The notes beneath the pieces were generated by a model. That model made no database searches. It had not been told where the DNA came from and saw nothing but the letters and a program-made list of their open reading frames with translations. 63,600 nucleotides of DNA from Eubacteriales bacterium (GTDB taxonomy: Bacteria > Bacillota > Clostridia > Oscillospirales > CAG-272), in contig JAZUPL010000035.1 of assembly GCA_045605175.1 (NCBI GenBank), forward strand, positions 1-63,600, given 5' to 3'. Below, piece by piece: positions 10,911-15,096 of this stretch. The first letter of the stretch is position 1; every line of letters starts with the position of its first letter. Position numbers and translations under genes: made by a program.

Positions 10911-10975
10911 GAGAGCAGTAGAGTCTTCGTGACAGCTGACACAAATTTTGTGTCCCGACTGCTCTTTTTTATTTT
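10911..10975 (+). ncRNA. Candidate ~65-nt small RNA (promoter followed directly by a terminator)
   Basis: TTGACA(10877-10882)-16-TATAAT(10899-10904), then outer stem AGAGCAG/CTGCTCT enclosing GACACA/TGTGTC, then T6. Confidence 0.3.
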
Positions 10976-11048
10976 TAGAACAATTTGTTTTCAATTATTA
11001 AAATTTAGAGGGTATAACACTAAAAATAAAGAAAAAGCGAAAAACCTC

Positions 11049-11077
11049 TTGCAAAATCAAAATGTTTGTGTTATAAT
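11049..11077 (+). promoter_or_regulatory. Sigma-A promoter for tRNA-Ser
   Basis: TTGCAA-17 nt-TGtTATAAT (extended -10), about 84 nt upstream of the tRNA. Confidence 0.65.
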
Positions 11078-11160
11078 ACCAAAGTGTTGTGACACAGTAT
11101 GCATCATAGAGAGTTATTTCACCTCCAGTGAATATAAACACCTTGTTGCATCATATTTAT

Positions 11161-11251
11161 GCAGAGGTATCGAAGAGGTCATAACGGGGCTGACTCGAAA
11201 TCAGTTTGTGGATAACACCACACGAGGGTTCGAATCCCTCCCTCTGCGCCA
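11161..11251 (+). tRNA. tRNA-Ser (anticodon CGA), class II with long variable arm, CCA encoded
   Basis: Acceptor GCAGAGG/CCTCTGC; anticodon stem GCTGA/TCAGT with loop CTCGAAA; variable arm GTGG..CCAC; T arm GAGGG-TTCGAAT-CCCTC; discriminator G plus CCA. Confidence 0.9.
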
Positions 11252-11296
11252 AAGGTTCAATTTAACCCATTCGGGTTGGATTGAACCTTTCTTTTT
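11252..11296 (+). terminator. Intrinsic terminator after tRNA-Ser
   Basis: aaggttcaat/attgaacctt stem with inner aaccc/gggtt, followed by ctttttt. Confidence 0.8.
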
Positions 11297-11324
11297 GGCT
11301 CATTCCGAAACTCTCAGCGAGGAT

Positions 11325-12095
11325 ATGCCCGATGATGGCAGTAACGGTGGCGCAACAAACGCCGACCTTATTACCAACGACTACCTCTGGGCGTCCTATG
11401 CTTTTATGCACGAGTCCTACGATGATGACGGCGAATCTGATTTTAATGACACATCGGCATTGAATACATATACCTACATTCACGAGTTTGGACATATCCT
11501 CGGCGCTGATGATTATTATGACACCGCAGCCGACACATCTCCTATGGAAGGTTGCGATATTATGGATTCAATGCTTGGAGATCATAGCGCATTCACCAAA
11601 ATTAATTACGGCTGGATAACAGAGTCGCGCCTCGTTGTGACCGACGATTATGTCACCTTGACCTTAAAAGATTTTGGTAAAACAGGCGACACGGTAATCA
11701 TTGCCAACAACTGGGATGAAACTCTTGGCGCATATCAGGAGTATTTTATTGTAGTTTATTACACGAATTTGGGGCTTAACGGCGGTGATAATGCAGGTTA
11801 CTTTGCCCGTGACGGAGTTGTTGTTTACCGCATAAATTCCTCTCTTTATATTGACTCGGAATACGAGGAAATTTATTACGATATTTATAACAATAACACA
11901 GCCCCCTCCGAAGAGTATGGCACCGAGGACAACCTCATTGAGTTTGTAAAAACCCAAAACGACACATTTACCTATGTTGAGGGCGACACCCTCCCAAAGG
12001 TTATTCTCACCTCTGGTGAGAGCCTTATTTATACCTTTGTTGTAGAGTCGATTGATTCCGACGGTGCAACAATTACATTTACAAAAGTGGCTTAA
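11325..12095 (+). CDS. M6 (immune inhibitor A)-like zinc metalloprotease, C-terminal part only; possible gene remnant
   Basis: HEFGHILGADDYYD zinc motif only about 55 aa after the first usable Met. There is no signal peptide or N-terminal catalytic half. The upstream part of the ORF-track frame runs through the tRNA, its promoter and its terminator. Confidence 0.5.
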   Translation: MPDDGSNGGATNADLITNDYLWASYAFMHESYDDDGESDFNDTSALNTYTYIHEFGHILGADDYYDTAADTSPMEGCDIMDSMLGDHSAFTKINYGWITESRLVVTDDYVTLTLKDFGKTGDTVIIANNWDETLGAYQEYFIVVYYTNLGLNGGDNAGYFARDGVVVYRINSSLYIDSEYEEIYYDIYNNNTAPSEEYGTEDNLIEFVKTQNDTFTYVEGDTLPKVILTSGESLIYTFVVESIDSDGATITFTKVA

Positions 12096-12215: not shown

Positions 12216-13328
12216 TTAGTTTTTTAGCACTTCGGCAAGTTGCTCCAAAGCGTCATCATAGTTGTCAAAATCAATTATGTAATCGCACAAGGAGGCGTTT
12301 TGTTCTTCGTAATCAATAGCGCAAAGTCTGTTTACTTTATCCTCGATTGATGAGTTTTTCCTGAGGATACTCGCCATCAAGGCTCTTTTGTCCCTCTTGA
12401 TATAAACCGTCGTAACATTTTTATAGTAGGTTTTGAGCGACATAGCGCCACAAATATCCATAGTTGTCACTACACGCTTTCCGCGGGCAAAGGTGGCTTC
12501 AATATCGCTTCGCTTAGTTCCATAGCAGTTGCCGGCGTATGTGGTGGCGGACAGAAATTCGCCTCTGTCACACATACTACGGAATTCCTCAAGCGATACA
12601 TAGTTATACCACTTATTGTTGGGTGTTTCCGAGGGCTCTTTGGTGGTATAAGTAACCAGTTTTTCAAAATCAGGGTTTTCCTCCAAAAAACGGGAAGCAA
12701 TTTTTGACTTTCCGCTGCGGGCAGGTCCTACCAGAACAACGATATCGGGGTCTTCTTCATTTTTTGGGTGGGGAATTGCTGAATAACTTTCCGCGATAAC
12801 CTCCACCAGTTTTAGAAATTCATCATAGTTGTTGACTGCCAACATACCGGTTGCTTCCTGATTCCAGGGGCGGCGCATCAGTATAGGGTGCTTTGCGCCT
12901 GAATTAAGGATGTTGTGCAGGGCATCGTCGAAGAGGATGTCGGTGTGTATATTTTCTTTGGCAGCGCCCATGTAAATATGATTCTCAGGAATTTCGGGAA
13001 ATTCCTCCATAATTCGCCTTGCCCGAATGCCCATAAACTGAGGCGGTATAGCAGTGCAAATATAAACCTCTACCATCTGAGAGAGCCTTTTTACAAAATC
13101 TTGTGCGCCCTCGTAAACGGGCTGGGTGCGATAAAATTCGGGATCGTTAAAATAACTGTAAATAGTATCTGCGCGTGTACCCATTTCGCCCCAACGTTCC
13201 TTTTCATATATGGTCATTGGTGGATTGAATTGATATTTTTCGTTGGCTAACCTGATAACATAAGATGTGCATTCCATCAAAAGGTCATCCACGTCAAGGG
13301 CGACCGATAATTTGTATTTTTTGTTCAT
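12216..13328 (-). CDS. Fusion protein: 5'(3')-deoxyribonucleotidase (NT5C/HAD) N-domain + guanylate kinase C-domain
   Basis: HAD motif I DVDDLL and motif IV FDDALHN in the N-domain. P-loop GPARSGKS and Gmk-like EFLSATTYAGNCYGT in the C-domain. Start set at MNKKYKL, which is preceded by a GAGGT RBS. Confidence 0.8.
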   Translation of the reverse strand: MNKKYKLSVALDVDDLLMECTSYVIRLANEKYQFNPPMTIYEKERWGEMGTRADTIYSYFNDPEFYRTQPVYEGAQDFVKRLSQMVEVYICTAIPPQFMGIRARRIMEEFPEIPENHIYMGAAKENIHTDILFDDALHNILNSGAKHPILMRRPWNQEATGMLAVNNYDEFLKLVEVIAESYSAIPHPKNEEDPDIVVLVGPARSGKSKIASRFLEENPDFEKLVTYTTKEPSETPNNKWYNYVSLEEFRSMCDRGEFLSATTYAGNCYGTKRSDIEATFARGKRVVTTMDICGAMSLKTYYKNVTTVYIKRDKRALMASILRKNSSIEDKVNRLCAIDYEEQNASLCDYIIDFDNYDDALEQLAEVLKN

Positions 13329-13513
13329 TTTACTACCTCGCTTTCTTAAATGTGCTTCGATATACAAATCAAATATTGTCGCGCTTACGCCGTCCACAGC
13401 GACAAGAGAGCAAACCCAATACATACTATATATAAAAAAGGGTTTTCATTTATCACTTTTTATGATTATTAATCGGAGCACATTGTTTAGTTAAATTTTA
13501 TCATCTATATAAT

Positions 13514-13600
13514 AAAAAAATCTACCGTTACAAAGAACGGTAGAAAATCATTTAGGGTGATTTGTAGAGACACGCAACCATATCATGCGTTTATACCAGA
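13514..13600 (-). promoter_or_regulatory. Purine riboswitch (C at the specificity position: guanine class) with overlapping intrinsic terminator
   Basis: The minus-strand RNA aligns to the xpt G-box: P1 UGGUA/UACCG, P2 ACGCA/UGCGU, L2 AUAUGG, J2/3 UCUCUAC, P3 AAAUCA/UGAUUU, L3 CCCUAAA, J3/1 UCU. Terminator is CUACCGUU/AACGGUAG plus U7. Confidence 0.85.
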
Positions 13601-13630
13601 AAAATATATAGATAGTTATTTTGGAATATG

Positions 13631-13659
13631 ATTGTACCATACTTTGCACAAAAATGCAA
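13631..13659 (-). promoter_or_regulatory. Sigma-A promoter driving the purine-riboswitch leader
   Basis: Minus strand reads TTGCAT-17 nt-TGgTACAAT (extended -10). Confidence 0.6.
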
Positions 13660-13706: not shown

Positions 13707-13775
13707 GCATTGATGATATACAACACTGCGTGTTGATGATATGCAATGCTTCGCATTGATAGGTGTTATCTAATC
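13707..13775. repeat. Three tandem ~23-bp direct repeats (GYRTTGATGATATRCAAYRCTKC)
   Basis: gcattgatgatatacaacactgc / gtgttgatgatatgcaatgcttc / gcattgataggtgttatc. The last unit overlaps the trpB stop codon. Confidence 0.7.
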
Positions 13776-14983
13776 CCATATCTTTCTATGACAAAGTCCA
13801 TGTCCTTGTCACCTCTGCCTGAGAGGTTGATAAGGATAGAGCCACGCTTCATTTTCTCTGCGAGTTTTATAGCGTAGGCGACGGCGTGGGCGCTTTCAAT
13901 GGCGGGGATAATGCCCTCAAGCCTTGCGAGGGTGAAGAATGCGTCAATGGTTTCCTCGTCGCCTATGCAGTCATATTTTACTCTACCATTGTCACGAAGG
14001 AATGCGTGCTCCGGGCCTGATGAGGGGTAATCAAGACCGCTGGCAACCGAGTAAACGGGAGCAGGCTCGCCGTTTTCGTCCTTTAACATAATACTGTTAA
14101 AGCCGTGCATAATTCCCTCGCTGCCATATTTAAGACTTGCCGCGTGGTCGCCGAGTGTTGGCCCTTTGCCGAGTGGCTCAACACCATAAATCTCCACAGG
14201 ATAATTAAGGAAACCGCTAAACAGTCCCATAGCATTAGAGCCACCGCCCACGCAGGCAACTATGGCGTCGGGAAGTTCGCCCGTCATACCGAGGAACTGT
14301 TCGCGAGCCTCTATACCTACAACACTTTGAAAATCTCTGACCATCATAGGGAAGGGGTGAGGGCCAAGTACCGAGCCTATGCAATATATAGCATCCTGAT
14401 ATTCACGAGCGTAGGCTAAAAAGGCGGCATCGACCGCTTCTTTCAGCGTGGCAAGTCCCTCGGTTACTTCTATAACGTTTGCGCCGAGTATTTTCATTCT
14501 CGCCACGTTGGGGGCTTGCTTCTTTATATCCACCGAGCCCATATAGATGTCGCATTTCAGTCCGAAGTATGCGGCGGCGGTGGCAAGAGCAACACCGTGT
14601 TGTCCTGCACCTGTTTCGGCAATGACCTTTTTCTTTCCCATATATTTTGCCAAGAGTGCCTCGCCCATGCAGTGGTTGAGTTTGTGAGCGCCTGTGTGGT
14701 TGAGATCCTCACGCTTTGCATACAGTTGAACATTTCCGAGTTTATTTGAGAGTCTTTCAAGATAACTTATAGGCGTAGGTCTGCCCTGAAATTCTCGACG
14801 AATTGTGCGAAGTTCGCCTATAAATTTGCTGGATTTACATATAGTGAAGTACGCCTCGGTTATCTCTTCCATAGCCTTTCTTAATTCGGGGGTTATGTAA
14901 GCACCGCCGTATTTGCCGAAAAATCCGTCGTTTGTGGGGTAGTTCTTAAAATATGTATCAAAATCAATACCGTTATATATCAT
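13766..14983 (-). CDS. trpB: Tryptophan synthase beta chain (TrpB1-like), stand-alone
   Basis: [22 protein letters not shown] (PLP lysine) and [10 protein letters not shown] motifs. Start set at the second Met, behind AAGGAG. Confidence 0.9.
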
Positions 14984-15096
14984 TTTTCTTCTCCTTATCA
15001 TTTATAAAAATAGATGCAAAAAACTTTTTGTAGATAGCGTGAAAGGGGTATTTAGTTCTTACGCCATCGCTTCGTCAGTAAAATCATAAACCCTCC

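Follow-up and report, generated by a model that had tools for sequence, protein, structure and literature searches.

Within the window, meaning the whole 63,600-nt stretch of DNA that was analysed, the minus strand carries a guanine-type purine aptamer (13538-13598, from P1 to P1), an intrinsic terminator hairpin that overlaps its 3' end, and a downstream gene for a 370-aa fusion of NT5C-type and guanylate-kinase-like domains (12216-13328). A cmscan search against Rfam 15 matched RF00167 (Purine) to 13521-13618 of the minus strand at 51.0 bits, where the gathering score is 37; the E-value is 1e-5 when the full 63.6 kb window is searched and 2e-7 when the search is confined to the local 1.2 kb. 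This is one of two matches above gathering score in the entire window. Among the clan CL00123 models in the Rfam copy used, RF00167 scored highest here, and no other member of the purine clan was listed there in a permissive local cmscan. Weak local matches to Ref84, snoMe28S and DUF3800-XI were dismissed, as they lie far under their gathering scores; the one to Ref84 covers just the terminator. Our own covariance model, R1, scored the aptamer at 87.8 bits. By the RF00167 membership tests, including the covariance-model scan that an earlier note on this DNA had proposed as a check, the element is a genuine guanine-class purine riboswitch.

The earlier note, made from the sequence letters, had aligned the RNA element by element with the xpt G-box, and all the helices and junctions that it listed are present. 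P1 (UGGUA, 13594-13598, with UACCG, 13538-13542) has five pairs, the outermost a U.G, and is followed by J1/2 UAA (13591-13593). P2 (ACGCA, 13586-13590, with UGCGU, 13572-13576) consists of five Watson-Crick pairs and is closed by a U.U that belongs to L2 (UGAUAUGGU, 13577-13585, with GAUAUGG inside). J2/3 (GUCUCUAC, 13564-13571) is 8 nt long and reads G-U-C-U-C-U-A-C, P3 (AAAUCA, 13558-13563, with UGAUUU, 13545-13550) has six pairs around L3 CCCUAAA (13551-13557), and J3/1 comprises the two nucleotides U13544 and C13543 (13543-13544). The specificity position named by the earlier note was borne out both in the sequence and in the model alignment, where C13543 is the equivalent of C74. Neither J2/3 nor J3/1 contains insertions or deletions, the four ligand-contacting positions U22, U47, U51 and C74 agree with the guanine-I consensus, and U22, A23, G46, U47, U49, C50, U51, A52, C53 and C74 are all as in guanine-I. 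Position 48 is C, in keeping with a guanine consensus of any base other than G (PMC2018637). The loop-loop letters GG (13578-13579) and CC (13556-13557) are present and invariant in relatives; our search pattern required them, and letters without variation give no covariation signal.

Two features of the aptamer depart from the familiar xpt form. P2 is one pair shorter, so that the model alignment takes one deletion per strand. This part of the earlier note's remark on P2 stood; its suggestion that the short helix leaves selectivity among guanine, xanthine and 2'-deoxyguanosine open did not, since OFF-type leaders of guaB, purL and xpt have a P2 of the same length, which rules out the short P2 as a sign of altered selectivity. 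The second is position 73, which is U (U13544) where guanine aptamers usually have A. A73, which is typical of guanine aptamers but does not strictly define them, is only ~90% conserved among them, and natural non-A73 variants bind in their own context (PMC2018637). We nevertheless count U73 against a functional guanine switch, since A73U in the xpt aptamer abolished binding of 2-aminopurine (PMC2018637), and likewise the very short P1, with four strong pairs and a U.G.

The terminator, UCUACCGUU-CUUUGU-AACGGUAGA (13521-13544), was called by the terminator scan as a hairpin of nine pairs, four of them G-C, with a 6-nt loop, and runs into a U7 tract (13514-13520). Its 5' arm comprises U73, C74, all five 3'-strand nucleotides of P1 and a further two nucleotides, and the same scan found no further terminator-like site on the minus strand between 12100 and 13900. 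Nearest-neighbour folding, which lacks tertiary contacts and misses the native junction, was applied solely to the competition of P1 with the terminator. The hairpin alone was predicted at -11.1 kcal/mol, compared with -13 to -24 kcal/mol in relatives; because it is the weaker one, the dynamic range of the window switch may be small. When unconstrained, the leader folded into P2, P3 and the terminator at -20 to about -22 kcal/mol (-22.3, z = -3.0 relative to shuffled sequences), and forcing P1 to form cost ~6 kcal/mol. In truncated transcripts P1 was present until the 3' arm of the terminator was added.

Upstream of the aptamer lies the promoter proposed in the earlier note as TTGCAT-17-TGgTACAAT, and its two elements are there: a -35-like hexamer TTGCAT (13654-13659) and, 17 nt past it, an extended -10 TGgTACAAT (13631-13639), which reads TGgTACTAT in the closest relatives. 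The -35 hexamer matches TTGACA at only 3/6 positions, and for this reason the promoter was not called by a consensus scanner. The block CTTGC[A/G]TTTTTGTGCAAAGT[A/G]TGGTAC[A/T]AT is kept in a close relative (locus L201), and these 33 nt are near-unchanged in the closest relatives while the flanks have diverged. The TTGCAT hexamer also doubles as the left arm of an inverted repeat, TTGCA-N6-TGCAA (13644-13659).

Related leaders were gathered in two ways. For the fusion gene, 80 related loci were scanned with blastn and with a covariance model built from 14 aptamers; a strict regular expression applied to the 700 nt upstream of the gene in these 80 loci had given zero matches. The scan yielded 14 strong model matches and three decayed ones (L008, L012 and L010). 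Eight of the strong matches are oriented away from the fusion gene and point instead to rubredoxin, PF21688 FAD-protein or small-ORF/MgtC genes, and in most of the 80 loci the riboswitch is missing, more distant or on the opposite strand. Upstream of the fusion gene and on its strand it was found in 5/80 loci, plus the closest relatives (L201-L206). It stands directly before the gene in the window and in L021, and with a DUF6198 (YczE-like) membrane gene in between in L003, L005, L006 and L026. These counts rule out a riboswitch specific to the NT5C/GK-like gene.

The second collection came from a pattern scan of metagenomes, in which junction and loop letters and the lengths of P2 and P3 were fixed while the helices and position 73 were left free; by design the pattern required C74, the L2-L3 GG/CC letters and some pocket columns. 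It returned at least 120 loci, and 80 distinct sequences were sorted by where the predicted terminator starts. In one group, comprising 50 distinct aptamers from gut and rumen Clostridia among the matches listed, the hairpin starts within P3, in its 3' strand, or at position 72/73, as expected of an ON switch. In the other, the OFF group, the terminator lies at least 16 nt downstream or none was detected. All 20 of the ON loci that were re-scanned exceeded the RF00167 gathering score (39.5-64 bits). The two groups differ in their genes: OFF aptamers of the same dimensions are followed by guaB, purL, xpt, permease or purine nucleoside phosphorylase genes, before which the overlapping-terminator type never occurs among the matches listed.

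Among the matches listed, 18/50 ON aptamers are first followed by a 457-aa FAD protein with a PF21688 domain, and 9/50 by a YgjV-like small membrane protein and then a Udk-family kinase of 547-567 aa, which is the directly downstream gene in another 3/50. DUF6198, with or without the fusion, follows in 6/50 (in L003 after a 46-aa tail ORF), and the NT5C/GK-like fusion gene itself directly in 2/50 of the matches listed. Within the same listed matches, ORFs of 34-53 aa ending in [DE]-S-[DEQ]-R, usually with MgtC next, account for 6/50, a rubredoxin with the same C-terminal tail for 4/50 and MgtC directly downstream for 1/50; in the last case (1/50, L131) the contig stops 124 nt past the aptamer and no gene was assigned. 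The "ESER-tail" is conserved at the protein level, with varying codons. The earlier note was right in placing the regulated gene outside the classical purine targets; those targets were found in the OFF group.

We then asked what the 50 ON aptamers among the matches listed, which align without gaps, say about the proposed structure. The named helices pair 82.5% of cells in this set of listed matches compared with 74.1% after shuffling (0/500 shuffles reach the observed value), and the covariation score was 0.333 against 0.176 (again 0/500), with slid controls at 0.142 or below. Pairs changed on both sides number 14/19 and include all six P2 pairs, again among the matches listed. These values support the three-way junction, for which covariation in P1-P3 had been put forward earlier as a check; P3 is little varied across the group. 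P1 is reduced there to a four-pair core, its fifth pair being mostly mismatched. J1/2 UAA and the J2/3 pocket columns (U22, U47 and U51, and the triples A23.G46-C53 and U22-A52) are invariant in 50/50 of the matches listed, and C74, required by the pattern, is likewise present in 50/50 of them. At position 48, G is absent (U 36, C 13, A 1, G 0 among the 50 matches listed).

The same set bears on the wiring. A predicted hairpin with a U run was found in 48/50 relatives among the matches listed, and C74 is paired with G in all 48. Position 73, which in the ON aptamers listed is U in 24, A in 21, G in 3 and C in 2, is paired by the hairpin in 44/48 of the matches listed, with the partners U.G 19, A-U 15, U-A 5, C-G 2, G-C 2 and G.U 1. 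Because position 73 covaries with its terminator partner and C74 pairs with G throughout, these alignments indicate that the helix competing with the ligand-bound pocket is under selection. The mutual exclusion of P1 and terminator, and with it the ON wiring claimed in the earlier note, finds its support here; such covariation in the overlap is, in our judgement, the strongest evidence for ON logic obtainable from sequence alone. The need to pair in the terminator would also account for positions 72-73, together with neighbouring 24 and 54, varying more than they do in guanine-I riboswitches generally. Compared with its relatives, the window element shows compensatory changes in P2 (G-C to A-U), in P3 (C-G to U-A and A.G to A-U) and in the terminator, which, together with the conserved promoter block, suggests that its function has been maintained.

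In its overlap of terminator and aptamer the window platform follows the logic of the pbuE (ydhL) adenine switch of B. subtilis, where the terminator takes its 5' arm from the 3' strand of P1 and the nucleotides next to it, and ligand leads to read-through in a kinetically controlled decision. The pbuE and add aptamers, of the adenine type, have U74, whereas C13543 in the window points to a guanine-type ligand. The window terminator stops short of P3, although it reaches into P3 in most relatives. In the B. subtilis xpt-pbuX G box (guanine-I, RF00167), the three-way junction, the L2-L3 GG/CC letters, J1/2 UAA, the junction lengths, the J2/3 pattern G-U-H-U-C-U-A-C and C74 are all shared with the window; there, however, P1 blocks an antiterminator (OFF), whereas P1 of the window competes directly with the terminator (ON). 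The window further differs in U73 instead of A, in the shorter P2, in a P1 of 5 pairs and in that the targets of its group are not genes of purine biosynthesis or uptake. Guanine riboswitches have been described as negative regulators in which P1 acts as an anti-antiterminator, in contrast to its role as antiterminator in pbuE (PMC2018637), and guanine-I has been classed as OFF and guanine-II as ON (PMC9295807). We take OFF wiring as a property of the guanine-I examples characterised so far and not of the aptamer family.

ON logic as such has precedents among derivatives that pair their ligand through C, namely guanine-II, xanthine-II, 2'-dG-III and the 8-oxoguanine riboswitch (PMC9295807, PMC10556655). 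The earlier note's view that an ON switch is unusual for a C74 aptamer is thus right for the guanine-I riboswitches described and too broad for C-pairing aptamers at large. Each of these precedents differs from the window in its junctions and in its genes. Guanine-II and xanthine-II have the same fold, a C-type ligand pair and predicted ON wiring (PMC9295807), but carry 1-2 extra nucleotides in J2/3 and 3-4 in J3/1 (PMC12445698), of which the window has none; xanthine-II moreover has G51 where the window has U51, and the gene associations of both (PRT enzymes, purine degradation) are unlike those of the window. The 2'-dG-III riboswitch resembles the window in being ON, in its scaffold, in a terminator that follows the aptamer and in its link to nucleoside metabolism (PMC9295807). 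Its J2/3, however, reads G-C-A-A-U-A-C-A, its other junctions are altered and a U.U lies at the base of P3, whereas the window has guanine-I junctions and a P3 that starts with A-U; its occurrence is confined to leaders of purine nucleoside hydrolase genes, unlike the window element. The 8-oxoguanine riboswitch, a guanine-I derivative, likewise combines ON wiring with a non-classical target (PMC10556655), but has lost U47 and one nucleotide of J2/3 and is associated with an 8-oxoG deaminase, whereas the window has U47, the full 8-nt J2/3 and an NT5C/GK-like gene. The 2'-dG-I and 2'-dG-II riboswitches have altered junctions of their own; in 2'-dG-II, J3/1 is 4 nt long, compared with 2 nt in the window. 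We found no report in the literature of ON-wired guanine-I riboswitches or of such gene associations, although an earlier description is possible.

Observed directly are the aptamer, the predicted terminator, the overlap of the two and the conservation of that overlap. We consider it likely, with fair confidence, that the window element is a transcriptional ON riboswitch with a guanine-I type aptamer, since its sole terminator is built in part from the C that would pair with the ligand and from the closing helix P1; ligand should then switch on the nucleotidase-kinase fusion gene. Transcription would start a few nucleotides past the extended -10 element, and the three-way junction would fold while emerging from the polymerase. 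When ligand is absent, the short P1, with its 5 pairs including a U.G, would be displaced once the 3' arm AACGGUAGA has been transcribed, and the 9-pair hairpin with its U7 tract would end the transcript at ~13514. With ligand, C13543 (C74) would pair with the purine and P1 would be locked, withholding 6/9 nucleotides of the terminator 5' arm, so that the polymerase could pass the ~190-nt spacer into the NT5C/guanylate-kinase-like gene. As in pbuE, the decision would be kinetic, which we expect because the terminator is complete just 17 nt after the aptamer. For the ligand, guanine is the most likely candidate and hypoxanthine and xanthine are weaker ones, and the switch would probably serve to induce genes of nucleoside or nucleotide salvage or interconversion at times of plentiful free purine base.

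Judging from their sequences, the ON-wired aptamers are best described as a conserved variant group of the guanine-I riboswitch with non-classical targets in gut Clostridia. Guanine-I riboswitches are familiar from textbooks as OFF switches of purine synthesis and uptake; a conserved and apparently widespread ON branch, if true, would make a free purine base an inducer in gut Clostridia. It would also link purine availability to several families of unknown function (PF21688, DUF6198/YczE-like, YgjV-like, NT5C/GK-like, long Udk-like and "ESER-tail" proteins), and the dual use of nucleotides 72-74 in pocket and terminator would be a factor shaping the aptamer sequence. We regard as doubtful the further-reaching proposal that the 50 ON-wired aptamers among the matches listed form a separate functional class that controls an unrecognised purine-induced regulon and perhaps responds to a ligand other than guanine. 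The regulon so proposed would comprise the PF21688 FAD protein, the long Udk-family kinases with YgjV-like or YczE-like proteins and the NT5C/GK-like fusions, as well as rubredoxins and the 34-53-aa proteins with [DE]-S-[DEQ]-R tails, some of them followed by MgtC-family membrane genes. For PF21688 FAD protein, rubredoxin, MgtC and Udk-like kinases, guanine as an inducer has no obvious reason, an observation that we count against our preferred reading of a guanine-type ON switch.

This touches on the alternative that survives best, though we judge it rather improbable for the window element: the same architecture and ON logic with a physiological ligand other than guanine. Candidates that would pair with C74 include xanthine or hypoxanthine, if one of them is the real signal, nucleosides or deoxynucleosides of guanine, and modified or damaged guanine. 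The atypical genes (the NT5C/GK-like fusion, Udk-like kinases, YgjV-like and YczE-like proteins, PF21688 and rubredoxin) would be in keeping with such a ligand, and it was through just such atypical gene associations that earlier variants were spotted (PMC9295807, PMC10556655). The roof of the pocket is relaxed as well: besides the mixed bases at position 73, position 24 is G or C in 7/50 and positions 54/72 form a purine-purine mismatch in 30/50 of the matches listed, and a roof relaxed at 24/54/72/73 might accommodate a non-guanine purine derivative. This variability, however, can be accounted for by the terminator pairing of positions 72 and 73 alone. The aptamer has all four ligand-contacting nucleotides of guanine-I, with a J2/3 and a J3/1 of guanine-I length, and the signatures of the known variants (the U47 deletion, longer J2/3 and J3/1, or a J2/3 of the form GCAAUACA) are absent. 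A closed guanine-I pocket, moreover, has no space for a sugar on N9, which counts against a nucleoside. Should the core bind guanine, the group would supply engineers with natural ON parts inducible by guanine; otherwise it would be another case of ligand re-targeting on the purine scaffold.

The regulated gene and the history of its operon raise a different question, that of whether the window copy still controls anything. Residues 9-179 of the fusion form an NT5C-type 5'(3')-deoxyribonucleotidase domain (PF06941, 63.7 bits) and residues 196-369 a divergent guanylate-kinase-like P-loop domain (PF00625, 89 bits), for which the NCBIfam guanylate kinase models scored under their cut-offs. When aligned with guanylate kinases of known structure, the domain has T-Y-T-T-K-E-P-S where the GMP-binding motif is S-x-T-T-R-x-P-R, and N in place of one lid arginine; because of these substitutions, GMP may not be a substrate of this domain. 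More than 2400 relatives with both domains were found, most of them from Oscillospiraceae and Faecousia genomes that had been assembled from metagenomes of gut and rumen. The closest (88% identity) belong to an operon in which the riboswitch is followed by DUF6198, the fusion and a Udk/PRK-family kinase. By blastn, promoter, aptamer and terminator of the window and of L201 are homologous at 78%; a gap follows, and homology restarts 22 nt ahead of the start codon. In place of 716 nt of L201 with DUF6198, the window holds ~170 nt of unrelated AT-rich sequence (13353-13513, minus strand), for which no relative was found in any fetched locus. Between this spacer and the gene lies a remnant of the DUF6198 3' end, TTTAAGAAAGCGAGG... 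(13329-13352, minus strand; compared with L201, L005, L026 and L021), derived from TTTGAAGAAAGCGAG, which encodes F-E-E-S-E; GAAAGCGAG of the window is what is left of this C-terminus. The remnant (~22 nt) has lost one base relative to the DUF6198 reading frame and contains the Shine-Dalgarno sequence GAGG (13336-13339), a good match 7 nt before the ATG. L021 has the same remnant and also lacks the DUF6198 gene, with a spacer of just 75 nt, and tblastn found neither DUF6198 nor a Udk-like protein in the window. The comparison indicates that the ancestral target is an operon of DUF6198, NT5C/GK-like and Udk-like genes, of which the window keeps the middle gene only, and that its riboswitch copy sits in a secondarily shortened operon.

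It follows that the element might be a relic whose aptamer no longer controls the fusion after loss of DUF6198 and insertion of the spacer, the gene then depending on a spacer promoter or on read-through past a hairpin that is now a plain leaky terminator. We think this quite unlikely, even though two genes of the ancestral operon are gone, unrelated sequence separates terminator and gene, the riboswitch accompanies so few of the fusion-gene loci on the same strand (5/80, plus L201-L206) and decayed aptamers do occur in the group (L008, L012 and L010). The rearranged operon also weighs against our preferred reading of an ON switch for the fusion, as the ~170-nt foreign spacer could hold its own promoter, and a promoter-like 9-of-12 match does lie within it (13465-13494). 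Such matches are, however, no more frequent than chance, with 4 in the region compared with 5.7 expected in shuffled sequence. The window aptamer retains all conserved nucleotides, its differences in P2, P3 and terminator are compensatory, its promoter is conserved, and L021 shows the same arrangement lacking DUF6198 with a short spacer only.

Finally, a conventional OFF switch, in which ligand would promote termination through an unrecognised structure, is in our view extremely improbable even though every experimentally characterised guanine-I riboswitch is OFF (PMC2018637, PMC9295807, PMC11477304), because the window has neither a separate terminator downstream of P1 nor an antiterminator, its sole terminator needs the nucleotides that ligand-bound P1 and C74 would hold, the overlap is kept and covaries in 48/50 relatives among the matches listed, and the true OFF examples from the same scan have their terminators at least 16 nt downstream.

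In many Oscillospiraceae genomes, a purine riboswitch wired as an ON switch adjoins the gene for the fused NT5C-type nucleotidase and guanylate-kinase-like (GK-like) protein, with its transcription directed away from that gene. Among the related loci fetched here, this holds for L027, L071, L024, L018, L032, L053, L004 and L002, where riboswitch and fusion gene lie on opposite strands and the riboswitch is 200–900 nt upstream. The neighbourhood of riboswitch and NT5C/GK-like gene is conserved even in genomes that lack the regulatory link. In the window, the gene upstream of the riboswitch (13766–15001, minus strand) encodes a pyridoxal-phosphate enzyme of 411 aa (PF00291), resembling a tryptophan synthase beta chain, whereas an Orn/DAP/Arg decarboxylase gene occupies this position in the closest relatives, indicating that the unit of riboswitch and fusion gene changed neighbours on both sides.

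Comparison with L201 (1479–1503), L005, L026 and L021 shows that the 22–24 nt directly 5' of the fusion gene's start codon (window 13329–13352, minus strand) are what is left of a lost DUF6198 gene, namely of its 3' end, with TTTGAAGAAAGCGAG changed to TTTAAGAAAGCGAG. The same one-base loss occurs in the remnant of L021, which points to a deletion, either shared or recurrent, in which the ribosome-binding site was left intact. Further upstream, the -35 region contains a 5-bp inverted repeat, TTGCA-tttttg-TGCAA (window 13644–13659, minus strand), within a block that is near-identical in the closest relatives (L201 reads TTGCG). The repeat could be a protein operator acting in addition to the riboswitch, or could have arisen by chance.

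The GK-like domain of the fusion protein (residues 196–369; window 12216–12740, minus strand) carries T-Y-T-T-K-E-P-S in place of the canonical S-x-T-T-R-x-P-R, such that the GMP-binding arginines are substituted, and one lid arginine is replaced by asparagine. All scores of the NCBIfam guanylate kinase models against the fusion protein fell below their cut-offs. The domain may act on a different substrate or be non-catalytic.

Immediately 3' of other ON-wired purine riboswitches we found small ORFs of 34–53 aa (L002, L004, L097, L117, L158, L177 and L003) or rubredoxin-domain proteins of 67–92 aa (L027, L032, L053, L071 and L018), all sharing a C-terminal tail of approximately K-Y-[SA]-D-x4-[DE]-S-[DEQ]-R-stop. 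Since the tail codons vary synonymously, the tail is conserved at the protein level; Pfam and NCBIfam gave no match. The usual next genes encode membrane proteins of the MgtC or RDD family. Three leaders of the small-ORF/MgtC operon, all on the minus strand (L008:2713–2780, L012:2714–2779 and L010:1846–1913), retain the terminator and have a decayed aptamer core, with J2/3 reading CAAUUUAC or worse. They scored 15–39 bits with the covariance model built in this analysis, compared to 85–95 for intact copies, and could be relics or re-targeted variants.

The ON-wired, A73-type leader of locus L082, located upstream of a PF21688 FAD-protein gene, recurs near-identically in at least 35 further metagenome loci, in two aptamer variants (at least 22 and at least 14 contigs). 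Because it is almost invariant across dozens of human-gut metagenome contigs, this arrangement is that of a very common gut species.

Finally, a mechanically listed 388-aa ORF with no match in Pfam (window 10929–12095, plus strand) has a tRNA-Ser with anticodon CGA inside it (11161–11251, plus strand), so the real start of this ORF must be further downstream.
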